Positions 15,086 through 37,400 of a stretch of 64,000 bases of DNA are shown in pieces. The position numbers and the translations under genes were made by a program. The notes under the pieces are model-generated. The model had not been told where the DNA came from, ran no database searches, and worked only from the letters and a program-made list of their open reading frames with translations. Source of the DNA: Pedobacter sp. UBA5917. GTDB taxonomy: Bacteria > Bacteroidota > Bacteroidia > Sphingobacteriales > Sphingobacteriaceae. How positions within the stretch are numbered: position 1 is the stretch's first letter; the number at the start of each line of letters is the position of its first letter. The stretch lies in the NCBI RefSeq assembly GCF_002432345.1, contig NZ_DJDT01000299.1, forward strand, positions 2,454 to 66,453, in the 5' to 3' direction.

Positions 15086-15156
15086 AAAAAAGCGCTTAAA
15101 GCGCTTTTTTAAATGCGATAAAAGGCAACATTATTCAATTAATGTTGCCTTTTTGT
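15086..15156 (+). terminator. two tandem rho-independent terminators after gap
   Basis: AAGCGCT-taa-AGCGCTT plus T-run (15090-15111). GGCAACATTA-ttcaat-TAATGTTGCC plus T-run (15125-15156). Confidence 0.8.
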
Positions 15157-15466: not shown

Positions 15467-15485
15467 TAGTGTATTTTTTACACTA
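15467..15485. promoter_or_regulatory. candidate NrtR-family operator, site 3 (perfect palindrome, orphan)
   Basis: TAGTGTATTTTTTACACTA is a perfect 7-5-7 inverted repeat. No annotated CDS lies downstream on either strand. Confidence 0.55.
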
Positions 15486-15498
15486 TCAAATTTTTTCC

Positions 15499-15506
15499 TA
15501 TATTTG
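15499..15506 (+). promoter_or_regulatory. Bacteroidota -7 promoter box TATATTTG
   Basis: Matches the TAnnTTTG consensus and starts 14 nt after site 3. A second TATATTTG box lies at 15376-15383. Confidence 0.35.
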
Positions 15507-15634
15507 TAGAGTAATAAACGGAACGATGTTTATTCACATTAAAAAAGATAAATCATTTTCTTGAAAAACTCCGGTTTAGATAGAAGATTAAAGACAAAGC
15601 CTGGCTCATAACAGGTTTATATTTGGTTAGAAAA

Positions 15635-15672
15635 AAGAGATACGTCTGGATGGAGTATCTCTTTTCTTATTT
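15635..15672. terminator. bidirectional terminator hairpin
   Basis: GAGATAC-N11-GTATCTC flanked by an A-run and a T-run. Serves the minus-strand gene ending at 15701 and could also stop a plus-strand transcript from 15506. Confidence 0.65.
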
Positions 15673-15700
15673 TAGGGGAAACGAAGTATACCGGATATAA

Positions 15701-16483: not shown

Positions 16484-16499
16484 AGTTTGATATGATTTA

Positions 16500-22562: not shown

Positions 22563-23921
22563 TTAATCGCCACCACAGCCGCCACAGCTACCGCACGAAC
22601 TTCCACATGATGAACCGCAGGAACTGGCCCCTCCTCCGCTATCGCCGCCCCTATTTCTTTCAGCGTTAGCCAAAGGAATCAAACTGACTGATAATACGGC
22701 CGAACCATATAGAAAATAGTCCCAACGCCAATCGCGGTTTTCTTTTATTGCCGGTAGAATAGTTTGTTTATAAAGATTTGGGATGGCAAGACTAAAAAAC
22801 TGCTGATTGAGTTTATAGAGGTAGTTTATTGTAAAAATGAGCAGAAGCCCCAGTAAAATTGCGATTTCAACAACAGGCTTATCCCTCGAAATACCTGTAA
22901 TAAGACGAATCAACGAAAACATGATTAGGGCAGCAAAAACTGTAAAATTAAGATAAAACAGCTTTGCAAATGGCTGTGATTGATTCAAATACCACTTCAA
23001 TTGGTCCATGCTCCTTGCGGTATTAGTAAAAATAGATTTAGCCCGCAATCTCTGGAGCAGCTCGCGATAAAAAATATTGCCATGGTCTTTTAAAACCGTA
23101 ATTACCTGAAGTTGTTCACCGGAAAGACGATCGTTTCCATTTGAAATACGCACCCGCTGATCTGATCCAACACTTATTATACCATCGTTTATCAGTTCGC
23201 TTATTGTTCCATTGATAACATCATCCAATTTTCCGCTTTTAAGATAAACCAGTTCGAATGGTTGAAGATGGTAAATAAAGGCCTCCTTATTAAAACTGCC
23301 GGCCAGCTGTTTAAACCTATTCTTTGTATATAAATTAAGAATAACATAAGCAGGAAGTATTAATCCAAGCAAACCCAAAATAAAATATGGATTATCGATA
23401 TGGATATAAAGCGGTTTGAGCAGGTAATAAAAAGGGACAATCAGTAAAATAAAAGCTACTACACCATAAAGCGCAAAAAGGTCCGCGGTAATTTTAGCCG
23501 GTTTAAGTTTTAAACTGCCCAGCATGGTATCGTTCTGCCAAATATCTCCGGGTTGTTCGCCAAAATTGGCACCATAAAGTTTTTGGGTTTGATCTGCTGC
23601 TCTTTTAAACCGCTCAAATTCTGCTTTATTGTGCGTAGAGGGAACATGTTGGATAACTTTACCGAGCAGGGAACAGAAATCGTGGTAAGATTGGCTAAAA
23701 ATGAGGTGCTGGTGCCAAACGATATCAACAATTGCAGCAGGCGAAACCATCACGTCAGAAGTGGCCGCGAGGTACATAAATTTTTTATACTCCAGAATGG
23801 CCTTTTCGGTAAAATCTCTTGTCCAGCGGTTCTCACTGGCCAATCTGACCGAAAAAGAATATTCGCCCGATGGATGATCGGGATTAAATTGAATGATCTT
23901 ATCCCAGAGCGCCTCGTTCAT
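22563..23921 (-). CDS. membrane protein, TIGR04222-like, with a glycine-rich-domain-protein-like N-terminus and a Cys/Gly/Ser C-terminal tail
   Basis: Soluble N-terminal domain (EYKKFMYL...VDIVWHQHLIFSQSY). Several TM segments. Tail GGDSGGGASSCGSSCGSSCGSCGGCGGD. Confidence 0.65.
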   Translation of the reverse strand: MNEALWDKIIQFNPDHPSGEYSFSVRLASENRWTRDFTEKAILEYKKFMYLAATSDVMVSPAAIVDIVWHQHLIFSQSYHDFCSLLGKVIQHVPSTHNKAEFERFKRAADQTQKLYGANFGEQPGDIWQNDTMLGSLKLKPAKITADLFALYGVVAFILLIVPFYYLLKPLYIHIDNPYFILGLLGLILPAYVILNLYTKNRFKQLAGSFNKEAFIYHLQPFELVYLKSGKLDDVINGTISELINDGIISVGSDQRVRISNGNDRLSGEQLQVITVLKDHGNIFYRELLQRLRAKSIFTNTARSMDQLKWYLNQSQPFAKLFYLNFTVFAALIMFSLIRLITGISRDKPVVEIAILLGLLLIFTINYLYKLNQQFFSLAIPNLYKQTILPAIKENRDWRWDYFLYGSAVLSVSLIPLANAERNRGGDSGGGASSCGSSCGSSCGSCGGCGGD

Positions 23922-24337: not shown

Positions 24338-24946
24338 TCACACCAATTCCTTTACCAATTTACTGCGTATGCGACTCAGTGTTTCGAGGCGCATACCCAG
24401 ATAACTGGCAATACAGCGCAACGGAACTTTTGACACATCAAAAGAATTTAATTCCAGAAATTTTTCATAGCGACGTTCTGCAGAAGGAATACGGGCGAGT
24501 ATCGATCTTTCTGATGCAGCGTGGTATTGCAATGCCAGGATTTTCCGCCCGATTACATTGGTTTCGGGATGGATAGCGTATAACTTATCAATCAAAGCAC
24601 GGGGAATGGGTACGAGTTCGGAATTTTCGAGCGCCTGCAAATATTCAATAGATGGCTGAATACTCTCATCCGGATGCTGTATAGCCCCGATAAATTCGTT
24701 TCCCAAACTAATCCAGGTAGTGATTTCTTTACCATCATCTTTGATAAAACCTCTTACCAGACTGTTTACCACAAAAAAAACATCGTCGTTATTATCAATC
24801 GGCGAAAGAATATACTTGTTCTTTTTAACCTGTATAGGCTGAACATTTTTTTCGATTTCCTGAATAAAACCCGGCGTTATCGGGCTCAAACTGCTGAAAT
24901 AATTCAATACAGCATTCACTAAAAATACCTTTCGGGATTCAAGCAT
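24338..24946 (-). CDS. Crp/Fnr-family transcriptional regulator
   Basis: cNMP-binding-like beta-roll followed by the C-terminal HTH RCIASYLGMRLETLSRIRSKL. Confidence 0.8.
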   Translation of the reverse strand: MLESRKVFLVNAVLNYFSSLSPITPGFIQEIEKNVQPIQVKKNKYILSPIDNNDDVFFVVNSLVRGFIKDDGKEITTWISLGNEFIGAIQHPDESIQPSIEYLQALENSELVPIPRALIDKLYAIHPETNVIGRKILALQYHAASERSILARIPSAERRYEKFLELNSFDVSKVPLRCIASYLGMRLETLSRIRSKLVKELV

Positions 24947-25045
24947 ACAATATAGGGATAGACTTTAGACCTTTAATTATAGCAAATCCAACTGAAACTT
25001 GAAAATAAAGTAGATTATTGAGACGATTGTGCTGTTAAAAACTTA

Positions 25046-25360
25046 TTAAACGGTAGTTTTCCTGATGTTTTGGAGCGTGATCTGATAAATCCAGCTAAAA
25101 ATACGCAACTTTGTTGCATCATAAAGATCGAAAGATTTCCATACTTCGCAAAAGGTCTGATCCAAAATCAATTTTGCCTTTTCCTCGTCATTTACTTTCC
25201 TGATAATCGCACCATAAATGGCCGCAGCGTATTGTTTGTACAGCAATTTGAATGCTTTGCCATCCTGATTTCTCAGCTGATCAAAAAAGATTTCCTCGTT
25301 TGATAACCAAACTTTTAGACTGGAATCCTGATCTACAATCCGGTTAACTGGCACATTCAT
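25046..25360 (-). CDS. sigma-70 region-2-only protein (ECF-sigma-like, lacks region 4)
   Basis: AFKLLYKQYAAAIYGAIIRKV...ILDQTFCEVWKSFDLYD...FSWIYQITLQNI follows the ECF region 2 pattern. The ORF ends at 104 aa, and no region 4 is encoded downstream in any frame. Confidence 0.55.
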   Translation of the reverse strand: MNVPVNRIVDQDSSLKVWLSNEEIFFDQLRNQDGKAFKLLYKQYAAAIYGAIIRKVNDEEKAKLILDQTFCEVWKSFDLYDATKLRIFSWIYQITLQNIRKTTV

Positions 25361-25460: not shown

Positions 25461-26441
25461 TTAAAAGTAACATTTCGGCCGCCTGCTTTTTTTGGTAACC
25501 AGGTAATAACCAACCGAAACCTCATGCGAACCGTAATCATAATTAGCCAGTTTATTTAAACTATAATCATAAGCATAACCGATACGCAGGTTCTGCCGGA
25601 TAAATAATTCGCTGATAAAACCAATGGCTGCACGATCGCGCAGGTTGTTATCCAGGTTTCGCTTTGGATATATTTTAACAGAAGTACGGTAAACAGCTCC
25701 GAGCCAAAAACGTTCCTTTACCAGTAAAAAAGCATTCAGATCCAATGAAGTAGGTCCGTGCAGGTCATCTTTGATCAAAAAAGTTGGCTTAAAAACAAAT
25801 TCATCATTCAATGGCAGCGCAAAACCAGAGGTTAAATAAAAATGTGGCTGCACTTTAACATTAAGCAGGCTATAATCGTTAAAAACCGACAAGGATTTAG
25901 ACAAAAGATTATCGGCAGAAAAACCAATAAAAAATTTCTCATTAGAGTAATGGATGCCGGCCCGGATATCAGGCATCACTTGGCTTACATTCCCTGTTGG
26001 AATACGGCTATCGCCCTGTTCAATCGGGTCGAGCAGGTTGCCATTTAAACTGGTTTGTATTACTCCCACGCCCAGACCAAAGGCGAGGATATTTGTCTCA
26101 GTACGATCTAACTTTATGCGGTAGGCAAAATTCGCTGAGGCATTTAAAGCACTCTGCGCCCCGATTTTATCTTTGGTAATGATGGCGCCTATACCCAAAC
26201 TTTCGTCATTAATGGCTTCATCAGCCGAAATAGACAGGGTTTGCGGTGCACCTTTAACGCCGGTCCATTGTGCCCGTGCGAAGGCCTGCAGATAAAGCTC
26301 CTCTTTGTAGCCGGTATATGCGGGATTGATATACATCCCGTTAAAAACATACTGACCAAACTGCGCATTCTGTTGGGCATGAAGTTTAAAAAACGCCATG
26401 CAGACCATAAAAACAAGAACGACTTTTTTTAAGCTCATCAT
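25461..26441 (-). CDS. T9SS PorP/SprF-family outer-membrane protein (cassette 2)
   Basis: Signal peptide followed by QQNAQFGQYVFNGMYINPAYTGY..., the hallmark PorP/SprF N-terminus. Predicted beta-barrel. Ends SRRPKCYF. Confidence 0.9.
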   Translation of the reverse strand: MMSLKKVVLVFMVCMAFFKLHAQQNAQFGQYVFNGMYINPAYTGYKEELYLQAFARAQWTGVKGAPQTLSISADEAINDESLGIGAIITKDKIGAQSALNASANFAYRIKLDRTETNILAFGLGVGVIQTSLNGNLLDPIEQGDSRIPTGNVSQVMPDIRAGIHYSNEKFFIGFSADNLLSKSLSVFNDYSLLNVKVQPHFYLTSGFALPLNDEFVFKPTFLIKDDLHGPTSLDLNAFLLVKERFWLGAVYRTSVKIYPKRNLDNNLRDRAAIGFISELFIRQNLRIGYAYDYSLNKLANYDYGSHEVSVGYYLVTKKSRRPKCYF

Positions 26442-26457
26442 ATCAGTTTAATTGTAT

Positions 26458-27402
26458 TTACCTAATAATGGTGATATAACCTTTATATTCAAGCCAATCG
26501 GTATTACCATTTTTCACCTTAACCACATAGAAATAAGTCCCATCACTTAATCCAGGCGCGGTCCAGTTATTGAGGTATTTGTTTGATTGATATACCGTAC
26601 TTCCCCACCTATTGATTACCGTTACTTCATTAAACTCAAAAGATTCGAGGTTTTCGAGATAAAATGTATCGTTTTTCCCATCCCCATTGGGTGTAAATAC
26701 ATTTGGTATCCTTAAACCCGAAATCTCTTTCAAATCGGTTGAAGTATTATTTGATAACACGGGATCATTTTCGGTTGCCGTTACAGTTGCGGTATTGCTT
26801 ACCATGCCAGGTTGTTTTGCCCTTACATGCACCACAAGCTCTGCAAATTTTCCATTGCCCAAAAGATCTATCCCCCATTGAATAGTTCTTGTAGCCGGAT
26901 CGTAAATGGCAGTTCCATCTGTTGGCTGGGCCAAACTTTCGAAAATGAGGTTATCTGGTAAAACATCCTTCACTTTTACGAATGTGGCATCATCTGTACC
27001 GTTATTCCGTACATCCAGGTAGTAATCAAACACCTGGTTACTCAGTACATTTTTGGTTTCCGAGCGCTTGGTGATGGCTACATCAGCCACAGGTGTACTG
27101 ATTACCTCTACTTCTATCTCATCAGAAGATTCAGACTCGCAGTCTAAACGGTTTATTGCGGTAACCTTATAAATTCCTGCTGTTGCGGTAACGAGTTCCT
27201 GTTTGGTCTGGCCGGGCACACGCTTCCCATCCTTGTACCAGATGTACGAGGAAGCCCCCACCGAATTTGCGCGCAACGAAACCGCCGATCCTTTTTTGAT
27301 CGTGATTTTCGGCCGCCCATTGGGTACGGTCTGGCTAAATCCTATTATAGATGAAAATAATAGAAAAGCCATAAACAGGAAGGTATAAAACCTAAGCCTC
27401 AT
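26458..27402 (-). CDS. small T9SS cargo: Ig-like domain + DUF11 repeat + type-B C-terminal sorting domain (cassette 2)
   Basis: C-terminus IPNVFTPNGDGKNDTF...INRWGSTVY...DGTYFYVV...KGYITIIR matches the gliding-motility-associated type-B CTD pattern. The middle has a DUF11-like block (VADVAITKR...NNGTDDAT...TATVTA..DP...NNTS). Confidence 0.85.
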   Translation of the reverse strand: MRLRFYTFLFMAFLLFSSIIGFSQTVPNGRPKITIKKGSAVSLRANSVGASSYIWYKDGKRVPGQTKQELVTATAGIYKVTAINRLDCESESSDEIEVEVISTPVADVAITKRSETKNVLSNQVFDYYLDVRNNGTDDATFVKVKDVLPDNLIFESLAQPTDGTAIYDPATRTIQWGIDLLGNGKFAELVVHVRAKQPGMVSNTATVTATENDPVLSNNTSTDLKEISGLRIPNVFTPNGDGKNDTFYLENLESFEFNEVTVINRWGSTVYQSNKYLNNWTAPGLSDGTYFYVVKVKNGNTDWLEYKGYITIIR

Positions 27403-27440
27403 TTACAGATTTACAAACAGGAAAAATGGATTAAACGATA

Positions 27441-28136
27441 TTAAAAAGTAACCGGGGTAGCTTTTCCAGAAATCAACGCAGGTGTAATGGTTGGTTTGGT
27501 TGGTTTAGGCGTTACCGTTACATCATGATCTACCGTTTGTGCACAATATTTATTGCCGTTAATTTCGTAACCTACTTTTAAGCGGTATTTTGTAGTACCC
27601 ACTGTAGGCGAAACCGGTGTATAATCTTTTTGGGTTGCACCGGCAATTGCGGTTTCGGCTGTACCAACAACAGTATACCATTGATAAGCTAAACTGGTAA
27701 TGGTAGGATCTTCGGGATTGGTAATTGTTCCAATCTGGGCAATCGGTGTTTCCACACAAAAATCGGCCGCGGCAAAATTGGGCACCAATGGCTGAAGTAC
27801 ATAAACCGGGATTTCCTGCATGTCTGACTCGCAGGATCCTGCGGCAGTAGCTTTCGAGCTTAAATAATAAAATCCATTTTTTAAAATGGCAGCGGGAATC
27901 TGGTTCCCACCGGTTAAAGTAATTAAGTCTGGTGGTGTTGTGGTTTGTGTAGCACTGTATCTTACAATCCAGTTTTGGCCTGGGGCTGGTGCAGGCAAGG
28001 TAAGATCGGAACCTTTACAGAATAAGTTAACGCCTGTAGTGGTTGGTGTAACGGTAACCTGTGCCGAAACGCGTAAGAAGTTACATATCAGCAATAATGC
28101 GATTACGAATAAGCTCTTTTTAATTGTACTGTTCAT
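27441..28136 (-). CDS. secreted two-Ig-like-domain protein, no CTD (cassette 2)
   Basis: Own signal peptide (LLLICNFLRVSAQ). Ig-like pattern with YQWY and C...C pairs. Ends in a Pro-rich linker plus a short tail (TPKPTKPTITPALISGKATPVTF). Confidence 0.75.
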   Translation of the reverse strand: MNSTIKKSLFVIALLLICNFLRVSAQVTVTPTTTGVNLFCKGSDLTLPAPAPGQNWIVRYSATQTTTPPDLITLTGGNQIPAAILKNGFYYLSSKATAAGSCESDMQEIPVYVLQPLVPNFAAADFCVETPIAQIGTITNPEDPTITSLAYQWYTVVGTAETAIAGATQKDYTPVSPTVGTTKYRLKVGYEINGNKYCAQTVDHDVTVTPKPTKPTITPALISGKATPVTF

Positions 28137-28166
28137 GGGGAATTGTTTTTTAGTTTGTTTAATTTT

Positions 28167-30302
28167 TTAATATTGAGATGTTATGGGCAACAGCACATGT
28201 GGCGCTGCCGGTTTTGGGTTTATTTTAATTGTGAAATTGATCTGGGTACTGCAACCATCGGCATTTTTGATGGTTAGGATACCTGAATGCGTTCCTGTTG
28301 CGGCATCAAAAGGAACCGTAAAAGGTATATTTCCAGGCGGTAAAGCCTGATTATTTATTGCTGTAAATCCGGCAGTGTTCCAACTGATGCTGTAAGTTGT
28401 TGGATTATTTAAAGGATTGTTATAACTTAATGATGAACTGGTAAAACCTGAGCAGATTTCGGGCGCTGCCCCTAATGTTAAACCTGGAGGTGCTGCAACG
28501 GTTAAATTAAAATCGGTAGAATTTGTACAAACAGCTGGTCCATCGGGAATAGTATACCTAATTACTGTTGTTCCGGCAGCAACTCCAGTTACTTCTCCTG
28601 TACCTGCATTTACCATCGCAATAAGCGGATTGGTACTTAACCATGTGCCGCCAGGATTTACATTATTTAAAGTAGTGGAAGAACCAATACAGATTTTATT
28701 GATGCCTGTTGTTGTGCCTACAGTGGCAATCGGCTTTACCTGGATGGCAAGCGCTGCACGGCTGGCACTTACGCAGCCTGTGATTTGGTTTACCGCCTCA
28801 ACATAATAAGTTGTGTTTGCAGTAAGCGCAGGTGTTGTATAAGTGGTACCGGTTTGTTTTAAGTTCCCGCCGGTAACCGCATCGTACCATTTATAAGTGA
28901 TACCCGGAAGTGGATTATCGACCGAAAGATTTACAGCTGAGCCACTGCACGAAATTACATTGGTAACCGAAACAGTTGGCAGAGGATTAACCTTTAACGT
29001 TACTTTTACCCGTTCGGAAATAGAGGAAATACAATTATTACGCCTCGATTCTACATAATAAACGTAATCGCCAACAGGTAATACACCCAAATTATAAGAA
29101 CTGCCGGTAAATAGTGGCGTGGGAGTATTTTTATCAGCGTACCATTTATAGGTAGTACAATCCTGCAGGTTATCAATAGATAGAATAGTGCCCTGGCCCG
29201 AACATACATTACCGGCATAAAGCTGTTGCCCGTTAATCAACGGTATGGGCTTGGGGATTACCTTGGTTACATTATAAATATGGAGTTCGGCACCAATCGC
29301 CAATACACCTCCCCATGATATTTTTACACGGTCGAAAACTGCCGATACCGGAAAAGAAACCTCATACTTAGTGGTACCAGCAATCGGTTTAACCGTTACA
29401 TTACCATTATTAAAAGCGCCACCCGCTGTAGCATTTCCCAGGTAAGGCTGAATGGTGAAACCACTGAACAAGCTTAGGCCTCCGCCACCATCGTAAACAA
29501 TTTTAATAGAGTCGAGCGGTTGACTTTCTTTAGCAAATATTGCTGTTATAAATGCCTCATTGGCAGCCTGAAGCCCGGTGTTAATGGTTGCATAAGTGGC
29601 GTAAGCAGGATCAGCATCTATAGCAGCATACGGATTACTTACCGAAGCTGTAGCATTGAGAATGCCGGCACCGTTTACCCCTGCCAATACATCAATACCT
29701 TTATCACATTCGATATCCAAAGGGTTATCTTCTAAAATATAGGCTCCGTATATCTCTGCCGATACCCCCAGAGAAGCCGCTGCCGTAACCTTAATATAAA
29801 CACCATTATAGGCCTGGGCAGGAGTTAAAAAAAGTTCGATTGCTCTTCCACCGCCCAATACACCTGCTATTGGATTGGAATATAATGCTGTACGCGTAGC
29901 TGCTTTGGTATTCGTATCAAAATTGGTAAAAGTTCCGATTTCGATTGTTCCTGACAGACTTAAAGCAGCTGCAGGACTGGATACTTTTACTATCACAGTT
30001 TTATTTGCAGGAATCAGACGTTTACCCAAATCGGTACCATCTGTACTAAACTCCAGAAACTGTGTAACGGATGATGTACTCAACAAACTATTGATAGAAG
30101 ATGTAGAAGCTGTTGACGGATCTGAATCAGCTGCTTTTGATCCATTGGTTAGGCTGGCAGATGCTCCCAATCCCCGGATAATCTGCGAATCCTGAAAACT
30201 AGCGTATACGCGGCTTTGATTCGTACACAACTGTGCATACAAAGGCCCTGAGAGGACCAAAAACAGTCCCAAGAATAAGAATAGACAAAAAAACCGCTTC
30301 AA
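28167..30302 (-). CDS. large secreted adhesin-like protein: two N-terminal unknown beta modules + Ig-like/BIG2-like repeats, no CTD (cassette 2)
   Basis: TTG start. Signal peptide ...LSGPLYAQ followed by LC. Repeats of C-x-G...Y-K-W-Y...Y-Y-V-E...C. BIG2-like GTWLSTNPLIAMVNAGTGEVTGVAAGT. Confidence 0.8.
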   Translation of the reverse strand: MKRFFCLFLFLGLFLVLSGPLYAQLCTNQSRVYASFQDSQIIRGLGASASLTNGSKAADSDPSTASTSSINSLLSTSSVTQFLEFSTDGTDLGKRLIPANKTVIVKVSSPAAALSLSGTIEIGTFTNFDTNTKAATRTALYSNPIAGVLGGGRAIELFLTPAQAYNGVYIKVTAAASLGVSAEIYGAYILEDNPLDIECDKGIDVLAGVNGAGILNATASVSNPYAAIDADPAYATYATINTGLQAANEAFITAIFAKESQPLDSIKIVYDGGGGLSLFSGFTIQPYLGNATAGGAFNNGNVTVKPIAGTTKYEVSFPVSAVFDRVKISWGGVLAIGAELHIYNVTKVIPKPIPLINGQQLYAGNVCSGQGTILSIDNLQDCTTYKWYADKNTPTPLFTGSSYNLGVLPVGDYVYYVESRRNNCISSISERVKVTLKVNPLPTVSVTNVISCSGSAVNLSVDNPLPGITYKWYDAVTGGNLKQTGTTYTTPALTANTTYYVEAVNQITGCVSASRAALAIQVKPIATVGTTTGINKICIGSSTTLNNVNPGGTWLSTNPLIAMVNAGTGEVTGVAAGTTVIRYTIPDGPAVCTNSTDFNLTVAAPPGLTLGAAPEICSGFTSSSLSYNNPLNNPTTYSISWNTAGFTAINNQALPPGNIPFTVPFDAATGTHSGILTIKNADGCSTQINFTIKINPKPAAPHVLLPITSQY

Positions 30303-30503
30303 TTTGTTTGGGAGAGCAAAAATTCAGGGTTATGTTTGGTTACGTAAAAATGGAACGAACGGTTTTTCGAACATTCATTTTATTCATTTTTCAACCAACA
30401 CAAAACTAATCAACGCTCATGTAATCCATGTTAAGAAAACATGCAACCACAAACAAAAAGCAAACAAATTAGGAATATTTATACGATTTTCAGGAGACTA
30501 CCG

Positions 30504-31475
30504 TTAGAAGTAGCATTTAGGTCTTCTGCTTTTAGCTGTTTGCAGGTAATATCCTATTGATATTTCGTGCGAACCATAATCATAGCTACCCAATTTATTT
30601 AAACTATAATCGTAACCATAGCCAATCCTCAGGTTTTCGCGCACAAAGAATTCAGCAATTAAACCAATAGCGCTCCTCGCCCTTAAATCAGCCTGCAGAT
30701 CGGGTTTTGGATAGAGCTTAACAGATGTTCTGTACACTCCGCCCAACCAGAGCTTTTCTTTGATCATTAAAAAAGCATTCAGGTCTAACGATGTTGGTCC
30801 GTTCAGGTCATCTTTGATCAGAAACGTTGGTTTGAACATAAAATCGTTATTCACCGGAAATACCATACCCGCAGTGAGGTAAAAATGCGGTTTCGCGGTA
30901 ATGCTGAGTAAATTATTATCCCTAAAAACAGGAAGATATTGCGTAAGCAGGTTATTGGCTGAAAAACCTACAAAAAATTTTTCGTTGGAGTAATGTACTC
31001 CTGCCCTTATATCGGGAACAATCCGGCTTTCGTAACCCGTAGGGATCCGGTTGTCGTTTATTTCGCTTGGGTCTAATAAGCTGCCGTTAAGCCCCATCTG
31101 CAATACGCCTAGTCCGATCCCAAATGCAAGTACATTGGTTTCGGTACGGTCGAGTTTAATTCGGTAAGCAAAATTACCGGATAAATTGAGCGAGGTTTGC
31201 GCACCGATCTTATCTTTAGTTACCAAAAGGCCCAAACCGAGACTTTCTTCTTTAACGGCCTCATCAACAGATATAGAAAGCGTTTGCGGTGCACCCTGTA
31301 TACCGGCCCACTGTGCCCTAACAAAAGCCTGCATGTAAAGTTCTTCTTTATAACCTGCATAGGCCGGATTAATATATAAACCATTGAACACATATTGCCC
31401 GAACTGTGCGTTTTGCTGGGCGAACAAACACAAACAGATTAAATTAAATAATGCCGTTAAAATTATCTTTTTCAT
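30504..31475 (-). CDS. T9SS PorP/SprF-family outer-membrane protein (cassette 1)
   Basis: QQNAQFGQYVFNGLYINPAYAGY... Colinear with 25461..26441 and has the same SRRPKCYF end. Confidence 0.9.
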   Translation of the reverse strand: MKKIILTALFNLICLCLFAQQNAQFGQYVFNGLYINPAYAGYKEELYMQAFVRAQWAGIQGAPQTLSISVDEAVKEESLGLGLLVTKDKIGAQTSLNLSGNFAYRIKLDRTETNVLAFGIGLGVLQMGLNGSLLDPSEINDNRIPTGYESRIVPDIRAGVHYSNEKFFVGFSANNLLTQYLPVFRDNNLLSITAKPHFYLTAGMVFPVNNDFMFKPTFLIKDDLNGPTSLDLNAFLMIKEKLWLGGVYRTSVKLYPKPDLQADLRARSAIGLIAEFFVRENLRIGYGYDYSLNKLGSYDYGSHEISIGYYLQTAKSRRPKCYF

Positions 31476-31497
31476 ATCCTCACCTTTTAACTTTCAT

Positions 31498-32436
31498 CTA
31501 TCTGATCACGGTAACATAACCTTTAAATTCCTGCCACTGCCCATTGGTAGCTTTTACCTTAAGTATGTAGAAATACGTTCCATCTACCAGGCCGTTGGCG
31601 GTCCAATCGTTTAAATAACCATTTTTCTCATATACCGTACTCCCCCAGCGGTTAATAATGGTTAGCTGGTTTTCGATGTAACGATCGAGGCGTTCGATAG
31701 AAAAAGTTTCGTTTTTACCATCGCCGTTCGGCGTAAATACGTTCGGGATTTTAAGTCCGGTAATTTCCTTGGTATCAACCGAGGTATTGTTCGATAGATC
31801 AGGATCGGGTTCATTGATGGTAACCGTGGCACTATTCACTACATTACCAGGTTTCATGGCCCTAACGTTAACAACCAGCTCAACAAAACTGCCATTGGCC
31901 AACGAAGGTATGGCCCACGAAACCGTTCGGGTTTGTTCGTTATAACTTGCAGTACCTACAATGGTGGGATCAACGCTTACAAATGTCAGGTTTTCAGGAA
32001 GATCATCCTTCACCTGTACATTGGTGGCCATCCCGAGGCCATTATTGCGCACCAATAAATTATATTTAAAAACTTCGGTATTGATTACCTGTCTGTTCTC
32101 TGATCTTTTTAGGATGGAAACATCAGCTGAGATAACCGATTCCATAATCACCTCCATTTCTTCTGAAAGATCGGAACTGCAGCCGCCAAGGCTAAAAGTA
32201 ATCACGGTATATTTTCCTGCGGTGCTTACCACATAATCCTGTTGGGTAGCACCAAAAATAGCATCACCATTCCTGAACCACTGGTAAGAGGTTGCCCCTG
32301 TACCGTTGGCCCTGAGTTTAACCGTAACGCCCGGTTTGAGGTTAAGCACATTGGGATTGTTAGATTGCGCAAAGCATGCTACCGCTGGGAGCAGCAGCAC
32401 GCTAAACACAATTATCCCTAACCTGCTAAACACCAT
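31498..32436 (-). CDS. small T9SS cargo: Ig-like + DUF11 + type-B CTD (cassette 1)
   Basis: IPNVFTPNGDGKNETF...INRWGSTVY...DGTYFYIL...KGYVTVIR. Colinear with 26458..27402. Confidence 0.85.
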   Translation of the reverse strand: MVFSRLGIIVFSVLLLPAVACFAQSNNPNVLNLKPGVTVKLRANGTGATSYQWFRNGDAIFGATQQDYVVSTAGKYTVITFSLGGCSSDLSEEMEVIMESVISADVSILKRSENRQVINTEVFKYNLLVRNNGLGMATNVQVKDDLPENLTFVSVDPTIVGTASYNEQTRTVSWAIPSLANGSFVELVVNVRAMKPGNVVNSATVTINEPDPDLSNNTSVDTKEITGLKIPNVFTPNGDGKNETFSIERLDRYIENQLTIINRWGSTVYEKNGYLNDWTANGLVDGTYFYILKVKATNGQWQEFKGYVTVIR

Positions 32437-32455
32437 GGCGGTTAAACTTTATAAC

Positions 32456-33184
32456 TTAAGGTGCTACAGCAATTGTTGCTTTGCCTGGTTTAACAGTAAC
32501 CGTAATGGCTTTTGAAGCTGTAGCGGTACAACTTGTAGAAGGCACAATAAGCGCAGAACCAACTGCATATTTACCCTCTGCAGTAAATACATAGGCTTCT
32601 GGTGCAACTCCTGCTTTTAAAGTAAATAGTTCGTTATTGGTTCCCGAAACGGCTCCTAAGGTTGTAGGATCGCTCACCGCTACACCACCTTTGGTTGCTG
32701 TCCAGGTGTAAACCAAAGAAACGCCAGCCGGCAAAGTAAGACCTGCATCTTTACTTGCTGTAATTACAGTAGAAGCGGTTTGATCGGTACAGTAAACACT
32801 TCCTGGGGCATTCACTGTAATGGCAGGAGGAGGAAGCTTTTCTACAACAGTATTATCCGATGCATCACTCGGACAAAGATTTGCATCAGCCGGTATTACC
32901 TGAACGGAGTACGTGTGCGTTCCGGCAGTTAATGTGGCAGGCACATTAAAAATGGCATCTGCTGCTACATTGTAAGTTACAGGGCCTTGAGCAGTACCAT
33001 CAACCGTCCAGATAATTTTATCACCGGCCACTGGTGTATATCCGGTAAATGCTGGCGTAAGTTTTACCGTACCTGTTCCGCACAGGTATACATTTGGTGT
33101 GGTTTGTGCAAATGCACCAATCGGCAATAAGAACATCAGGAATGCAAAGATCCTTAAATAGTTTTTTGTAGTTTTTTTTGTCAT
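32456..33184 (-). CDS. secreted Ig-like-domain protein, no CTD (cassette 1)
   Basis: Signal peptide FLMFLLPIGAFAQ. Thr/Ala/Val-rich beta-rich sequence. Ends VKPGKATIAVAP. Confidence 0.7.
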   Translation of the reverse strand: MTKKTTKNYLRIFAFLMFLLPIGAFAQTTPNVYLCGTGTVKLTPAFTGYTPVAGDKIIWTVDGTAQGPVTYNVAADAIFNVPATLTAGTHTYSVQVIPADANLCPSDASDNTVVEKLPPPAITVNAPGSVYCTDQTASTVITASKDAGLTLPAGVSLVYTWTATKGGVAVSDPTTLGAVSGTNNELFTLKAGVAPEAYVFTAEGKYAVGSALIVPSTSCTATASKAITVTVKPGKATIAVAP

Positions 33185-33222
33185 GGCTTTAATTTGTTAG
33201 GGATGAATGATTTATTTCTTTT

Positions 33223-35430
33223 TTAATTAATAGATACTGTTGGTTTGTGCGGTACAAGCTTTACCCTAAAACTGAAAGGGATGGTGCGCTCGCAGCCATT
33301 TGCATTTTTAATGGTTAAATTCCCCTGGTACACGCCAACGGGTGTAGTAGCGGGTATATTGATGGTAATTTCGTTTGCCGGCAAAGTTTGGTTCGAAACA
33401 GCGGGAAGTACTCCCCCAAGCCACGAAATGCTGTAGCTAATGGGATCGAAAACCGGATTGGTATAGGTAAGCTTTGTTGAGCTCAGGCCCTCGCATATTC
33501 CCGGATCGGGGCCAAGGGTTAAATTGGGTTGCGGATTTACGGTTAAATTAAAATCAACCTTTTGCCCGCAGTAAGTAGCGTCGTCGGCAACTGTGTAGCT
33601 GATTACCGCATTACCTGCAGCAGCGGCTGTAACCAAACCCGCAGCATTTACTGTTGCAATAGCCGCATCACTACTGCTCCATGTACCACCCGGATAGGCA
33701 TTGGTAAAGGTTAAACTTGTTCCAGCACACATGGTTGCCGAACCAACAATAGCAGGTACAGGTGCATATTGTTTTACTTTAACCTCTACAGCCTTAGCGC
33801 CACCTGCATTTTTACATCCCGTTAGGGTATTTACAGCTTCAACATAATAAGTTGTGGTAGCGATAAGGGCTGGCGTGGTATAAGTTGTACCCACATTAAA
33901 TGGCGTACCACCGGAAGACGATACATACCAGTTGTAGGTAAAACCCGCATCAGGACTGGTAACCGCAAGCGTTGTTGCAGAACCGCTACAGATTGTTGCT
34001 CCCGGAACAGCAAGTGTTGGCAAAGGATTAACTTTTAGCTTTACCCTCAATCTTTCTGATACAGCAGTGATACAATATGTTCTGCTTGCCTGAACGTAAT
34101 AATTATATTCGCCGGCAGCAAGGGTTGATGGCGGCGTATAGGTTAACCCTGTACTTAATAATGTACCTCCTGTTTCGGCATCGTACCATTTATATTCGGT
34201 ACAGGCTTGTGCATTTTGAACAGAAAAACTTGCCGTTCCACCCTCACAGATGGTTTTCTCATCTGTTGTTGAGGGATCTACCAATGTTCTCGGCTTTGCA
34301 AGTTTACGTTTGATATCATAAATCCTTAAACGGCTAAATGCACCCGTAAGCCCACCCATCGAAATTTCTAAACGATCGTACACATCTGTTACAGGAAAAG
34401 TTAAGGTGTATTTGCTGGATGACCCGGGGAATAAATTTAGGCTCAAAAAAGTTCCGGTATTATCAAAAGCAGGTCCTGCTTTTGCTCCATTTAAATAGGG
34501 CTGTATGGTAAAACCTGTTAAAAGGCTAAGATTTAAAAGTCCCCCGCCCGGATTTTCGAGCACAATGGTTACAGAATCTGCAGGTTGCGAAGGTTTGTTG
34601 AAAACGGTTGTCAGATAAACCTGATTCAGGATAGAAGCCCCCACATCAATCAGGGCAAAACTATTGGGATCTGCATCAATTGCATTAAACGGATTGCTCA
34701 CCGTACCCGTTAAGTTAGCAATCCCCCCAAGCGGTGTTGGTTTTACCCCCGAAAGCACATCAATGGTTTCATCACAGTTAATCGAACCTGTGCTTAGCTC
34801 CATGATATAGGCATGGAATACTTTCATCGATAAAGCTGTAGAGAGTACCGCCCCGGCAATTTTGACATAGATTCCGTTAAAATCCTGTGTAGGTGTTACC
34901 GTAATTTCTACTTCTCCCCCTCCGCCTATTACGCCGGCAATGTTTGCTGAGGTATAAATCGGATTCCTTGTTGCGTCGTAACCCGGATCGTATCCGTAAC
35001 CGATTAAGGGCTTGCTCCCAGCAACGGCATGCAGATCAGTAAAACTCCCAATCTCAAAGCTGCTCAAAAGCCCCAACAATTCTTTTGGTAATGCCAGTTT
35101 AACCGTTACAGGCGTATTTGCAGCAATGGTTCGTTTGCCTGCATTGGTACCATCAGTAGTAAATTCGAGAAACTGTGTGGCCGAACCTGTAAGGTTCAAA
35201 AGTCCTATCGGAACCGATAGTGTTGACGCATCTTTAACCTGCCCATTAACAGCATTTGGCGCATCAGCAATACTACCATATAAATTTGCACCTAAAATGC
35301 CCAGCCCATCAATATATGAACCTTGAAAGTTAGCATAAGTCCGTGCTGTATTTTCACACTGTGCATATAAATATACAGGCATACAGCAAAACACAAATAC
35401 CAGGAAGGATAGACAAGAGCGCCTTTTCAA
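33223..35430 (-). CDS. large secreted adhesin-like protein, no CTD (cassette 1)
   Basis: TTG start. Signal peptide ...PVYLYAQ followed by C. Shares blocks with 28167..30302: TQFLEF(S/T)TDGT, VSNP..AIDADP, GFTIQPYL, LKVNPLPT, GTTYTTPAL.A.TTYYVEAVN..TGC, YSISW, LTIKNA.GC. Confidence 0.8.
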   Translation of the reverse strand: MKRRSCLSFLVFVFCCMPVYLYAQCENTARTYANFQGSYIDGLGILGANLYGSIADAPNAVNGQVKDASTLSVPIGLLNLTGSATQFLEFTTDGTNAGKRTIAANTPVTVKLALPKELLGLLSSFEIGSFTDLHAVAGSKPLIGYGYDPGYDATRNPIYTSANIAGVIGGGGEVEITVTPTQDFNGIYVKIAGAVLSTALSMKVFHAYIMELSTGSINCDETIDVLSGVKPTPLGGIANLTGTVSNPFNAIDADPNSFALIDVGASILNQVYLTTVFNKPSQPADSVTIVLENPGGGLLNLSLLTGFTIQPYLNGAKAGPAFDNTGTFLSLNLFPGSSSKYTLTFPVTDVYDRLEISMGGLTGAFSRLRIYDIKRKLAKPRTLVDPSTTDEKTICEGGTASFSVQNAQACTEYKWYDAETGGTLLSTGLTYTPPSTLAAGEYNYYVQASRTYCITAVSERLRVKLKVNPLPTLAVPGATICSGSATTLAVTSPDAGFTYNWYVSSSGGTPFNVGTTYTTPALIATTTYYVEAVNTLTGCKNAGGAKAVEVKVKQYAPVPAIVGSATMCAGTSLTFTNAYPGGTWSSSDAAIATVNAAGLVTAAAAGNAVISYTVADDATYCGQKVDFNLTVNPQPNLTLGPDPGICEGLSSTKLTYTNPVFDPISYSISWLGGVLPAVSNQTLPANEITINIPATTPVGVYQGNLTIKNANGCERTIPFSFRVKLVPHKPTVSIN

Positions 35431-35548
35431 TACTTTCGGGATGTGACGTAAAACGGTTTGTTTGTTGACACAAAAGTATGTCGGGCTGCGGCCATATTAG
35501 CCGTTCACTTTATTCATTAAACCCTTTAAAAATACGTAAAATGCTGTT

Positions 35549-35568
35549 TTGTTGACATTTATCAACAA
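35549..35568. promoter_or_regulatory. inverted repeat TTGTTGA-N6-TCAACAA upstream of the cassette
   Basis: Perfect 7 bp arms about 120 nt upstream of the TTG start at 35430. It overlaps the second copy of the direct repeat ACGTAAAA...TTTGTTGACA (35446-35470 and 35534-35557). Confidence 0.35.
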
Positions 35569-35799
35569 CCTGAAGTTTTAGGGTCAAAAGCTAAGACAAA
35601 TTACCCTTTGCAAAAAATTTCCTGATACAGGCTTGATTTATGATTATTTGGAAGCTCATAATCCCAATTAACCGGCACAAAATTTATTTAGCAAATAATA
35701 CTTGCAAGAGAAAAGAGTTATCGTATCTTTGCACCCTCTCTGGAAGCTTCCACTCCAGGGTTTAAGAAAGCTTTCCAGCAATGGGAGGCTTTTCTTATT

Positions 35800-37233
35800 T
35801 TAAGCAAACAGAATATCCATGGTAATCTCTTTTTGTACCAAACCCGGATAGCTTATATCATTCTTTACGCCATAAGTTGTAATCATGGTTAAAAACAACG
35901 CTTTTCTTGTTCCGGTTTGCGATTGGAATACCATTAGCTTGTTATTCAACTCTTTTTCGTAAGACTTACTGATTTCAAAAGGTGCAACCGAAAACTTCAT
36001 CTCGCAGATATTGATACAGGAATCGTTACGGTCGATGAGGAGATCGATCTGCGCACCCTGCTCCTCTTTATTTTTGGGTAGATAACGCCATACCGAAATT
36101 TCGGCATAAACATTTTCTATCCCTATTGCTTTTTTTATCTGTACGATATGTTTCATGCAGATACTTTCGAAAGCGTAGCCGCTCCAGCTTTTCCACGAAG
36201 TACCCGAATAAAATTTTAGCCAGGTACCCGCCCCTGTTGCTTTATTGCCATCTATAAATTTCAGGTAAAAAATAGAATACTCGTCGGTAAGTTTATATAA
36301 AGCATCTTTAGTGCTTTTACCAAAAGGAATATATGGTGTAATGAAACCGGATTCGGCCAGTTCGGCAAGCAATTGCGTGGCATAGCCACCACTGCTTAAT
36401 TTACAGGCATTGATAATTTCGGTACGTGTTAAACCTTTGCTCTTTTTAGCCAGGGCCTGTACAATATCGATATGGTTTTCGGCTTTATCGAATAAGGAAT
36501 AGTATAGGTTCTTAAATTCTTCGAGCAGCAATCCATCCTTCGTAAAAAATAACCGGTCTATAATCTGCGCAACACTTTCGCCCGGTTCTATTTCTTTAAG
36601 GTATTGGGGTATGCCGCCCATGGCCATATAAACCTGTAAGAGCTGGTATTTATCGAGTTTTATTTTCCTATGTTTAAGGTATGCTGCTGTTTCGCCAACT
36701 GTAAAAGGCAACAGCCTGATCCTTCTGGTAACGCGGTTATGCAGACCGCCGCGGTTATTGATTACTTTATTGATCATCCAGGAGGCAGCCGAGCCACAGA
36801 TCACCACAATAAGTTTTTTTTCTTTGGAGGCCCAACTGTTCCAGAAGTTTTCGAAAGCAGGCAAAAAACCTGAACGGGCGGTATTGATCCAGGGAAATTC
36901 GTCGATAAAAATGATTGTTCTTTCCTTTTTAACTAAAGGCGTAAGGTATTGGGTAAGCATCTGGAAAGCTGCAATCCAACTCTCGGGTTTGGCAAGCGGA
37001 AGCCCACCGGTTACTTTGGTTAGTGCCAAACCAAAGTTTTCCAATTGCTGGTTTAACGTTGCATGGTGGATCCCAGAAAATTCGAATGCAATATCCTTAC
37101 TAAAGCCATTCCTGATCAGATAAGTTTTTCCAACCCGCCTGCGCCCATACATTGCAATCAGTTCGGCCTCGCCTGATTTTTCAATCTTGCTTAACAGCAA
37201 TTTTTCATCAGTTCTACCTACAACCTGTTCCAT
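35800..37233 (-). CDS. AAA-type ATPase with C-terminal PD-(D/E)xK-like domain (archaeal-ATPase/DUF234 type)
   Basis: Walker A GRRRVGKTYL and Walker B IIFIDEFPW. The C-terminal QIDLLIDRNDSCINICEMKF fits a D...E-x-K nuclease-fold motif. Confidence 0.75.
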   Translation of the reverse strand: MEQVVGRTDEKLLLSKIEKSGEAELIAMYGRRRVGKTYLIRNGFSKDIAFEFSGIHHATLNQQLENFGLALTKVTGGLPLAKPESWIAAFQMLTQYLTPLVKKERTIIFIDEFPWINTARSGFLPAFENFWNSWASKEKKLIVVICGSAASWMINKVINNRGGLHNRVTRRIRLLPFTVGETAAYLKHRKIKLDKYQLLQVYMAMGGIPQYLKEIEPGESVAQIIDRLFFTKDGLLLEEFKNLYYSLFDKAENHIDIVQALAKKSKGLTRTEIINACKLSSGGYATQLLAELAESGFITPYIPFGKSTKDALYKLTDEYSIFYLKFIDGNKATGAGTWLKFYSGTSWKSWSGYAFESICMKHIVQIKKAIGIENVYAEISVWRYLPKNKEEQGAQIDLLIDRNDSCINICEMKFSVAPFEISKSYEKELNNKLMVFQSQTGTRKALFLTMITTYGVKNDISYPGLVQKEITMDILFA

Positions 37234-37272
37234 AAACCATTAATTTATAACAACAAAGGTAATAAATTAATG

Positions 37273-37400
37273 AGTTTTGGCGCAATATAAAAAGCTATAT
37301 CACGCCAAAACTATGTTTTTTATGGTAGTTTTGGCGCAATATAAAAAGCTATATCACGCCAAAACTATGTTTTTTATGGTAGTTTTGGCGCGATATAAAA
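37273..37400. repeat. 54 bp tandem repeat, about 2.4 copies, each with a hairpin
   Basis: Unit AGTTTTGGCGCAATATAAAAAGCTATATCACGCCAAAACTATGTTTTTTATGGT starts at 37273, 37327 and 37381. Internal inverted repeat GTTTTGGCG...CGCCAAAAC. Confidence 0.9.

Follow-up and report, generated by a model that had tools for sequence, protein, structure and literature searches.

Each of the two gene cassettes found in the window (the whole 64,000-nt stretch of Pedobacter sp. UBA5917 DNA that was analysed) probably encodes a T9SS surface adhesin that is divided over three polypeptides, here called L, S and C, and that is served by a private outer-membrane carrier, P. A split type-B adhesin is the most likely reading because the LN head, the N-terminal domain of L, is also found at the N-terminus of single type-B giants and of solitary type-A proteins. 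The eight genes form two colinear L-S-C-P cassettes on the minus strand (Table 1). Their coordinates and sizes in the original prediction were confirmed by our ORF check, and the sequence also confirmed the gaps of 16-38 nt within the cassettes and the spacer of 201 nt between them.

Table 1. Features of the two cassettes and their surroundings (window positions; all on the minus strand)
Feature	Position	Strand	Description	Basis
Upstream region of cassette A	35431-35799	-	intergenic; TACTTTTG at 35471-35478	
L_A	33223-35430	-	735 aa, TTG start; putative signal peptide, LN head, 2x Ig_7, Big_2-like, terminal beta domain, tail; same architecture as L_B	
LN head of L_A	34276-35361	-	residues 24-385	structure model
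L_A tail	33226-33255	-	VPHKPTVSIN	sequence; orthologue conservation
S_A	32456-33184	-	242 aa ORF; putative signal peptide, Ig-like domains, tail	
S_A tail	32459-32491	-	KPGKATIAVAP	sequence
C_A	31498-32436	-	312 aa ORF; putative signal peptide, Ig, DUF11/CLIPPER (31777-32124), type-B CTD (31501-31755)	
P_A	30504-31475	-	323 aa ORF	
P_A tail	30513-30515	-	RRPKCYF; position is that of Cys321	sequence
Inter-cassette spacer	30303-30503	-	201 nt; one TAGTTTTG at 30401-30408	sequence
L_B	28167-30302	-	711 aa, TTG start	
L_B tail	28170-28220	-	NPKPAAPHVLLPITSQY	sequence
S_B	27441-28136	-	231 aa ORF; putative signal peptide, two Ig-like beta-sandwiches, tail	
S_B tail	27444-27509	-	PKPTKPTITPALISGKATPVTF	sequence
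C_B	26458-27402	-	314 aa ORF; Ig, DUF11/CLIPPER, type-B CTD (26461-26712)	
P_B	25461-26441	-	326 aa ORF	
P_B tail	25470-25472	-	RRPKCYF; position is that of Cys324	sequence
Downstream neighbours	24338-25360	-	104-aa ORF and Crp-like protein (weak cNMP-binding Pfam match)	

The global protein identities between cassettes A and B are 42.8% for L, 23.9% for S, 51.9% for C and 69.0% for P, and the DNA identities of the genes are 55-68%. Given these values, the duplication is old rather than recent. The four pairs had been predicted to align along their full length, which does not hold for the S pair of 242 and 231 aa (BLASTP E=0.82, not significant): the kinship of S_A and S_B emerges only when profiles are compared (hhalign probability 96%, E=2.3e-9, 138 columns). 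S_A also presents profile homology to S-like proteins of Chitinophaga. All eight N-termini combine one or more basic residues, a hydrophobic stretch and A/S-Q, as expected if every protein carries its own predicted signal peptide. For L_A and L_B the putative signal peptide requires the TTG starts, and this N-terminus is kept in all Pedobacter orthologues; the public annotations of the two genes (719 and 687 aa) begin farther downstream, so that the N-terminal signal region is lost.

The assignment of a cargo of about 313 aa composed of Ig, DUF11 and type-B CTD was upheld by profile HMMs, since C_A and C_B exceed the curated cut-offs for CHU_C (87.6 and 81.6 bits; cut-off 27), TIGR04131 (43.1 and 45.6 bits; cut-off 35) and DUF11 (82.8 and 79.6 bits; cut-off 24.6). 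Residues K110, D144 and N201 of C_A constitute the CLIPPER isopeptide triad, and the spacing of K, D and N in the C proteins equals that of the crystal structure in PMC12617251. Each C protein further possesses a single cysteine (Cys86 in C_A and Cys88 in C_B), and both this cysteine and the triad are invariant in 122/122 members of the family. The dedicated PorP/SprF of each cassette was recovered as well: P_A and P_B reach 262.4 and 263.6 bits with TIGR03519, well past its curated cut-off (90.55), and P_A reaches 246 bits with PF11751. The cysteine of the C-tail is found in all 41 of the 41 cassette PorPs.

Neither L nor S presents a recognizable CTD, as had been claimed: the CTD families gave no match, even at E<=10, to the C-terminal 150 aa of L or to S. 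L_A matched Ig_7 (131 bits) and Big_2 in Pfam, and its LN head was modelled with a pLDDT of 85.6. In Foldseek searches this model resembles tandem CBM32/CBM51/F-lectin modules, a likeness at the level of the fold only (single-domain TM about 0.5, identity 9-14%), and the LN head is an unannotated, lectin-like double jelly-roll that could bind sugars. In P. rhizosphaerae the heads are replaced by alternative ones, yet the C-terminal module and the tail are unchanged. For S_A, no family of Pfam or NCBIfam scored above cut-off. The AlphaFold2 model of S_B shows pLDDT >90 across both Ig-like domains and matches tandem Ig proteins in Foldseek, including fragments of the grappling-hook protein GhpA. 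S_B has 82 homologues, the named ones being nearly all from Pedobacter, and 0/82 bears a functional name.

The best 150 LN representatives include 32 giants with a terminal type-B CTD, 21 mid-size proteins with a terminal type-A CTD and 43 mid-size proteins with a terminal tail (loose pattern). LN proteins that carry a CTD themselves are solitary genes (e.g., at loci L025 and L026). A 3284-aa protein of Parapedobacter (L032) consists of LN, ten Ig_7, seven DUF11 and CHU_C, and a 1747-aa protein of Pedobacter sp. BS3 (L024) of LN, Ig, five DUF11, three Ig_7 and CHU_C, each being followed by PorP. These single chains share with the cassettes the LN head, the Ig_7 and DUF11/CLIPPER stalk, CHU_C and the downstream PorP, but they form one polypeptide instead of three and possess neither internal signal peptides nor free tails. 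The N-terminal position of the LN head in type-B and type-A proteins with a CTD indicates that it is an extracellular module. Single-chain relatives would also be expected if each cassette were a decaying giant adhesin gene split by stop codons, L and S being non-functional fragments; the breaks coincide with domain boundaries, and the L gene is broken in one genome (L027). This scenario is extremely improbable and is effectively refuted by cassette conservation and purifying selection: each piece has its own conserved putative signal peptide, the split is kept in 44 further cassettes from five taxa, and dN/dS is 0.02-0.125 across all eight genes (0.07 for L_A, 0.08 for S_A and 0.10 for L_B), all of which are under purifying selection.

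Synteny of the four-gene unit in related genomes is well established by these 44 cassettes, which occupy 37 genome loci in Pedobacter, Parapedobacter, Sphingobacterium, Chitinophaga and one MAG. Two metagenome contigs also carry the cassette in a different neighbourhood. Pedobacter cassettes are inherited whole, A-type or B-type throughout, with one exception; the A and B lineages are paralogous and old, share one conserved chromosomal site and probably give two adhesins of different specificity. Wherever L is CTD-less, L, S and C co-occur without exception, and three loci keep L-S-C with no adjacent PorP, which suggests that L and S are tied to C rather than to P. Alternatively, only C and P might make a surface complex, with L and S as co-regulated accessory proteins of the kind proposed for SprC/SprD; they would then act outside the filament, as helpers in the periplasm or at the outer membrane or as secreted factors in their own right. 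We consider this unlikely. The missing CTDs of L and S, a gene order akin to sprC-sprD-sprB-sprF, a role of SprC/D that is still given as unknown (PMC9389320) and the undocked L_B tail described below would agree with it, but type-B giants and type-A proteins begin with the LN head, L and S contain the same Ig_7-like stalk domains as CTD adhesins, C itself carries hardly any passenger, and L-S-C stay together where PorP is elsewhere.

Every CTD-less L and S closes with the consensus P-x-P-x-x-P-x-[ILV]-x-[ILV], which is missing from the CTD-bearing relatives. The strict pattern passes in dozens of LN representative clusters with mutual identity <=50%, and the L_A tail is kept at the extreme C-terminus in all A-type L orthologues. 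Judging from its sequence, the L_A tail looks like an Ig_7 inter-domain linker followed by an orphan A-strand. It is conceivable, though distinctly improbable, that the tail is a new and very short export or sorting signal by which PorP or the translocon exports L and S singly, before release or separate anchoring. Such a signal would suit the extreme C-terminal position (as in T9SS signals), the conservation over so many clusters, the exact anticorrelation with the CTD and the matching tail style of L and S within A-type and within B-type cassettes. However, the tail resembles an ordinary Ig_7 linker and first strand and no known CTD, three loci retain L-S-C without a local PorP, and the T9SS signals known so far fold as domains with a length of at least about 80-100 aa (PMC12618676). 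When the L_B tail was tethered to S_B, AlphaFold2 left it undocked (pLDDT <50), in a weak test, since the peptide lacked an alignment and the linker included a signal peptide.

In the split adhesin that we favour, P, a beta-barrel of the PorP/SprF type, would take the type-B CTD of C from the SprA translocon and hold it at the surface, by analogy with SprF and Fjoh_3951; type-B cargo is known to remain bound to its own PorP-like carrier (PMC9143113). C (mature length ~290 aa: Ig, DUF11/CLIPPER stalk domain with intact Lys/Asp/Asn isopeptide triad, and CTD) would serve as the base because its length barely exceeds the 150-235 aa that a type-B signal requires (PMC12618676). S, with its two Ig-like domains, would be the mid-stalk, and L, with four Ig-like/beta domains and the N-terminal double jelly-roll lectin-like head, the distal part. 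We infer that L and S leave the cytoplasm through Sec, that signal peptidase I cleaves them to expose an N-terminal Gln, and that their C-terminal module and tail join them to C, either in the periplasm, from which they would depart together with C, or on the cell surface. The resulting order L, S, C, P would match the succession of domains in the single-chain relatives. The original proposal that the small cargo anchors a multi-subunit structure is thus indirectly supported by these relatives, by the co-occurrence of L, S and C and by the restriction of the tail to CTD-less subunits. Our literature search returned no T9SS case of CTD-less proteins exported with a CTD-bearing partner.

The sprC-sprD-sprB-sprF operon of F. 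johnsoniae likewise encodes a type-B CTD adhesin with its cognate PorP/SprF gene directly downstream; it also has two CTD-less genes upstream and no PorE-like gene, a likeness in gene order only. SprB, however, is one giant polypeptide, whereas the CTD protein of the cassette is ~312 aa long, with the head and most of the stalk on separate proteins. SprF and the cassette PorP both have cysteine in the periplasmic C-tail (PMC9143113, PMC12618676, PMC12635249), as Cys-x-Cys in SprF and as a single Cys (PKCYF) in the cassettes. The SprF cysteines form a disulfide with GldK (PMC12635249), and by analogy the cassette PorP might bond GldK as well. A type-B substrate on a PorP-like carrier at the surface is also found in Fjoh_3952-Fjoh_3951-Fjoh_3950 (F. 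johnsoniae) and PG1035-PorP-PorE (P. gingivalis), but these are statically anchored and include a peptidoglycan-binding PorE-like protein, whereas Pfam annotation of the cassettes and their neighbours revealed no PorE-like gene. Operons without such a gene yield mobile adhesins (PMC12618676). Because of this absence and of the conserved cysteine in the periplasmic C-tail of PorP, coupling to the GldK track, as in a mobile SprB-like adhesin, seems likelier than a static tie to the cell wall.

The CLIPPER (DUF11) fibrillar adhesins (Costa et al. 2025, PMC12617251) resemble the cassettes in their layout, in which an adhesive head is combined with a stalk made from Ig-like and CLIPPER domains and with a domain for sorting, and the K/D/N triad is conserved in C; the fibrillar adhesins described are single chains, whereas the cassette spreads this layout over three gene products. 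Strand-donation pili (chaperone-usher and Bacteroidota type V) offer a similar polar logic, in which L would be a donor end only, S an acceptor-like N-terminal Ig with a donor end, and C an acceptor-like domain with an anchor. The cassettes, however, contain no chaperone, usher or processing protease genes, and the AlphaFold2 tail test gave no support to the strand exchange hypothesised here.

Two candidate promoter elements were noted. The TAGTTTTG of the spacer matches the Bacteroidota -7 promoter consensus TAnnTTTG and precedes the L_B start by 99 nt, and TACTTTTG lies 41 nt before the L_A start as a consensus match only. Motifs of this type are not enriched over chance in the window (94 occurrences against 85 expected), so TAGTTTTG is likewise best regarded as a mere consensus match. 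The cassettes may or may not be regulated by their downstream neighbours, the 104-aa ORF and the Crp-like gene, which most Pedobacter loci also have beside their final PorP.

Eight minus-strand ORFs were found exactly where the original prediction had placed them, arranged in two colinear cassettes, A and B. Each cassette encodes a large protein (L), a small Ig protein (S), a cargo (C) bearing a type-B T9SS C-terminal domain (CTD) and a PorP/SprF carrier (P). The expected spacing was also recovered, with gaps of 16–38 nt within cassettes and a spacer of 201 nt between them. A signal peptide had been proposed for every protein, and by inspection all eight N-termini look like one, ending in A/S-Q. 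For C_A and C_B these are MVFSRLGIIVFSVLLLPAVACFAQ followed by S and MRLRFYTFLFMAFLLFSSIIGFSQ followed by T, and they are kept in orthologues. The signal peptides of L_A and L_B depend on TTG starts; the N-terminus encoded in this way is kept in all Pedobacter orthologues, and the public annotations of the two proteins (719 and 687 aa) begin downstream of the TTG and lose the signal peptide. The motif TAnnTTTG is present upstream of both cassettes, yet it is not enriched across the window, and scans for sigma-70 promoters and terminators found nothing exceeding shuffled controls.

Coordinates of the cassette genes, of neighbouring features in the window and of selected loci from the head-domain scan of other genomes
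Feature	Sequence	Coordinates	Strand	Remarks
L_A	Window	33223-35430	minus	Cassette A
S_A	Window	32456-33184	minus	Cassette A
C_A	Window	31498-32436	minus	Cassette A
P_A	Window	30504-31475	minus	Cassette A
L_B	Window	28167-30302	minus	Cassette B
S_B	Window	27441-28136	minus	Cassette B
C_B	Window	26458-27402	minus	Cassette B
P_B	Window	25461-26441	minus	Cassette B
Predicted membrane protein, 452 aa	Window	22563-23921	minus	No Pfam match; Gly/Ser/Cys-rich C-terminus (...GGDSGGGASSCGSSCGSSCGSCGGCGGD)
ATPase_2/AAA_14 gene	Window	35800-37233	minus	Between glgB and cassette A
TAGTTTTG, four copies	Window	37254-37387	alternating	Within ~80 nt, between ATPase gene and glgB
L-S-C without adjacent PorP	L029 (Parapedobacter defluvii)	9908-13364		
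L-S-C without adjacent PorP	L037 (Bacteroidota MAG)	1885-5203		
L-S-C without adjacent PorP	L028 (Sphingobacterium MAG)	1-3273		
Three consecutive cassettes	L011 (Pedobacter rhizosphaerae)	557-17041		
Split L gene	L027 (Pedobacter sp. AK013)	9920-12144		ORFs of 242 and 476 aa

Global protein identity between the two cassettes is 42.8% for L, 23.9% for S, 51.9% for C and 69.0% for P, and DNA identity across the paralogue pairs is 55–68%. Identities this low indicate that the cassette duplication is old. The four pairs had been described as alignable from end to end, which does not hold for S (BLASTP E=0.82); the S proteins are related at the profile level. Orthologue profiles of S_A and S_B match each other with an hhalign probability of 96% (E=2.3e-9, 138 columns), and both match the same-position small proteins of Chitinophaga and Sphingobacterium with 98% probability.

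The tagged cargo and its carrier were both recovered by profile searches (scores for A and B, respectively). C scored 87.6 and 81.6 bits against CHU_C (PF13585; cut-off 27) and 43.1 and 45.6 bits against TIGR04131 (cut-off 35), with the type-B CTD match spanning profile positions 2–85 of 85 and reaching the C-terminus of the protein; the predicted DUF11 domain (PF01345) scored 82.8 and 79.6 bits (cut-off 24.6). P scored 262.4 and 263.6 bits against TIGR03519 (cut-off 90.55) and 245.8 and 250.3 bits against PF11751. C and P are therefore assigned by profile to the type-B substrate and PorP/SprF families, and the cognate porP/sprF-like gene expected next to a type-B cargo lies directly 3' of C, 16 and 22 nt away. 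Sequence searches of the PDB gave no match for PorP and only phage Ig-like domains for C.

C is a very small cargo. The proteins are 312 and 314 aa long, and DUF11 and CTD together make up ~210 of the ~290 aa of the mature form. Type-B signals are reported to require 150–235 aa (PMC12618676), so that C is essentially a signal plus one extra Ig domain. [quoted passage not shown] A candidate isopeptide triad in C, K110/D144/N201, is invariant in 122/122 family members, and its spacing (34 and 91 residues) is close to that of the CLIPPER crystal structure (33 and 91). The solved CLIPPER domain (PDB 9IFR) was not among the hits of the PDB sequence search with the DUF11 region of C. Mature C also has exactly one cysteine, located in the N-terminal Ig domain in the context G-C-[ST]-S-D and again invariant (122/122); the cysteine with which it would normally form an Ig_7 disulfide is replaced by lysine. 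The number of cysteines in CTD-less L proteins is odd in 62 of the 67 proteins of the homologue set and in nearly all of those at the scanned loci, where three automatic counts are even, and S proteins have an even number. This parity suggested a disulfide between L and C. We set this idea aside and do not rely on it because lone cysteines also occur in proteins that combine the head domain of L with a type-A CTD.

No such tag is recognisable in L and S, as had been proposed: neither the type-A (TIGR04183/PF18962) nor the type-B (TIGR04131/PF13585) models matched the last 150 aa of L_A and L_B or any part of S_A and S_B at E<=10. L contains two copies of Ig_7 (131.3 and 128.4 bits for L_A and L_B; cut-off 27.3) and a Big_2-like domain, and its first ~360 and last ~100 residues match no family. 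S_A and S_B have no family above cut-off, and NCBIfam provides no name for either L or S. The AlphaFold2 model of S_B consists of two Ig-like sandwiches (pLDDT >90); domain 1 has no A-strand and domain 2 has one. Its structural neighbours include fragments of GhpA, the Aureispira grappling-hook protein, which is a T9SS-secreted filament protein. MAFFT kept placing the C-terminal 200 aa of L over S, and this hint was followed by a weak profile link between the C-terminus of L and S (hhalign probability of 80% with S_A and 25% with S_B).

The N-terminal head of L, LN, was modeled by AlphaFold2 (362 residues) as two beta-sandwich jelly-rolls (pLDDT 85.6, pTM 0.86). Its best Foldseek matches in the PDB were tandem CBM32, CBM51, F-lectin or discoidin proteins, with E-values of 3e-7 to 1e-5 for tandem CBMs. 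The similarity is at the fold level only (TM 0.49–0.56 and identity 11–14% for single CBM32 domains), and LN has no Pfam match. This fold-level similarity of the model suggests that the head may be lectin-like. The LN family comprises 437 representative clusters at E<=1e-3 and carries no annotation. Among the representatives P0300–P0437, giants of 2000–4900 aa hold up to 13 LN-region stretches, mostly corresponding to the second half of the head (residues ~140–360). These stretches make up a family of Bacteroidota adhesin repeats that has no annotation.

L_A is 100% identical to a protein of Pedobacter sp. UBA5917, whose contig also encodes L_B; an exact-sequence search of public assemblies with C_A gave no hit. 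With the head domain as query (10-sequence alignment), a scan covering a single genome of each species returned 41 loci, and the ORFs of these loci were then searched with the domains of the window. The four-gene unit is syntenic elsewhere, as anticipated: 44 further L-S-C cassettes were found in 37 loci of Pedobacter, Parapedobacter, Sphingobacterium, Chitinophaga and an unclassified Bacteroidota MAG, and PorP is directly downstream in 41 of the 44. The three trios with no adjacent PorP (table) resemble the "orphan" type-B cargo found among some F. johnsoniae substrates. Metagenome contigs carry two distant homologues of L in this same order of four genes, surrounded by unrelated genes. Within Pedobacter, loci hold single, double or triple cassettes that share one chromosomal site, with glgB on one side and a 104-aa ORF and a Crp-like gene on the other. 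This site is occupied by A only, B only or A+B, and a cassette is nearly always A-type or B-type in all four of its genes. All eight genes evolve under purifying selection (dN/dS 0.02–0.125). The pieces of the cassette are real genes that are inherited as units, and the annotation and synteny claims made for the cassettes are solid. The L gene of Pedobacter sp. AK013 is broken (table), owing either to pseudogenization or to an error in sequencing.

The locus of P. rhizosphaerae presents three consecutive cassettes (table). The large proteins of cassettes 1 and 3 (867 and 989 aa) have unrelated heads; they contain DUF11 and no LN. These proteins nevertheless keep the B-type C-terminal domain of L together with its tail. 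The assembly module thus seems to be constant, with heads that can be exchanged on it.

The same domains are also found in single chains. One Parapedobacter locus (L032) encodes a 3284-aa protein with an N-terminal LN, ten Ig_7, seven DUF11 stretches and a terminal CHU_C, followed by PorP; a second locus, in Pedobacter sp. BS3 (L024), encodes a single chain of 1747 aa with the same domain vocabulary, also followed by PorP. The best 150 of the 437 LN representatives include 32 giants with a type-B CTD at their end and 21 mid-size proteins with a type-A CTD there; a further 43 mid-size proteins have neither CTD and finish with a short conserved tail (loose pattern). Where an LN protein has a CTD of its own, it is encoded by a solitary gene (e.g., L025 and L026). 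These single-chain and CTD-bearing relatives argue that the LN head is an extracellular module. As read from these domain architectures, the head is predicted to reach the surface in three formats, of which the cassette is the split one. Given this fusion evidence, a type-B adhesin split into separate proteins is the best explanation for the cassette, and we consider it reasonably probable. The multi-subunit surface structure proposed in the original prediction is partly supported, in that annotation, synteny and single-chain relatives all fit a split adhesin.

How the pieces might be joined is suggested by their ends. Every CTD-less L and S carries the motif P-x-P-x-x-P-x-[ILV]-x-[ILV], ending within ~12 residues of the C-terminus, and this tail is confined to the split format. 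In Pedobacter, the A-type tails are VPHKPTVSIN in L and KPGKATIAVAP in S, and the B-type tails are NPKPAAPHVLLPITSQY in L and PKPTKPTITPALISGKATPVTF in S; those of Chitinophaga are PRPGAPLLTIQLNP in L and PKPGKPVITIQ in S. Judged from its residues, the tail resembles an Ig_7 junction, in which a linker and a first strand lead into the following domain, and mature S_A and C_A start at about the second half of such a junction. The ends are polarized: L has a tail only, S combines a tail with an Ig domain at its N-terminus, and C combines such an Ig domain with the CTD. The gene order L, S, C, P fits this polarity.

We joined the 21-aa tail of L_B to S_B by natural read-through and modeled the chain with AlphaFold2 with no alignment depth for the tail; the tail was disordered (pLDDT <50) and undocked, which we do not take as a refutation of assembly. 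These ends could be taken to mean that the cassette builds a heteropolymeric fibre that depends on the T9SS, L-(S)n-C, with PorP holding it. Donor strands would be provided by the C-terminal tails. L, with a head and a donor tail and no acceptor, could be nothing but a tip; C, which has the CTD and an Ig domain as acceptor, could be nothing but a base; and S, which has both ends, could be inserted head-to-tail in varying copy number. Subunits without a CTD would be carried across the outer membrane by C and in no other way, and the tail cysteine of PorP would link the whole fibre to the GldK track, along which it would be dragged. A fibre of this kind seems rather unlikely to us. If true, it would be the first subunit-assembled T9SS appendage, and secretion by hitchhiking would be seen for the first time in the T9SS. 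Neither a type-B adhesin of several subunits nor hitchhiking via the T9SS turned up in our literature search.

Coupling to the motility track can be considered for the split adhesin in its own right. The Cys-x-Cys tail of SprF makes a disulfide with Cys343 of GldK, which couples SprB to the moving track, and a single cysteine is enough in P. gingivalis PorG (PMC12635249). The tail of P (...SRRPKCYF) differs from that of SprF in having a single cysteine; this cysteine is conserved in the C-tails (RRPKCYF, RQVRCSYF or LRCYF) of 41/41 cassette PorPs. Because PorG works with one cysteine, coupling through the single cysteine may still occur. Type-B pairs of F. johnsoniae are mobile when the operon has no PorE-like gene and static when it has one (PMC12618676). 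No PorE-like (OmpA_C) gene was found among the eight proteins or the flanking genes, and by analogy the cassette complexes are more likely to be track-coupled than static. Pedobacter heparinus and P. saltans are on the list of gliding strains having the T9SS (PMC10515386).

Type-B substrates are established as single proteins, each of which remains attached to its private PorP/SprF carrier, as in the adhesin–carrier pairs SprB–SprF, Fjoh_3952–Fjoh_3951 and PG1035–PorP (PMC9143113, PMC12618676). By analogy, the cassette probably works like such a pair and remains a variation on the adhesin-plus-carrier theme. It differs from these pairs in that its tagged protein is minimal, in that head and stalk are separate untagged proteins with signal peptides, and in that the untagged proteins bear a conserved tail. 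The adhesin of sprCDBF is a giant type-B CTD protein, whereas the CTD protein of the cassette is 312/314 aa long and the head and most of the stalk are on L and S. The role of SprC and SprD is given as unknown in reviews.

What is new is a widespread and strongly conserved unit whose tagged protein hardly exceeds the tag itself and whose stalk and putatively lectin-like head are placed on two proteins without a secretion tag. If the pieces assemble, the T9SS would export or display hetero-oligomers, the short tail would represent a new assembly or sorting signal, and CTD-based predictions would under-count T9SS-dependent surface proteins. The route of untagged proteins to the Bacteroidota surface, which matters to the T9SS and gliding field, can thus be addressed in a small testable system. 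With a base of ~290 aa in place of the giant SprB, the cassette offers a compact and tractable model for the connection between type-B cargo, carrier and GldK track. A further gain is the definition of the unannotated head domain family.

Other features of the window lie close to the cassettes (table). The ATPase_2/AAA_14 gene at the site between glgB and the cassettes is missing in some Pedobacter species and present in others, and the gene of the 452-aa membrane protein is syntenic in several Pedobacter genomes.
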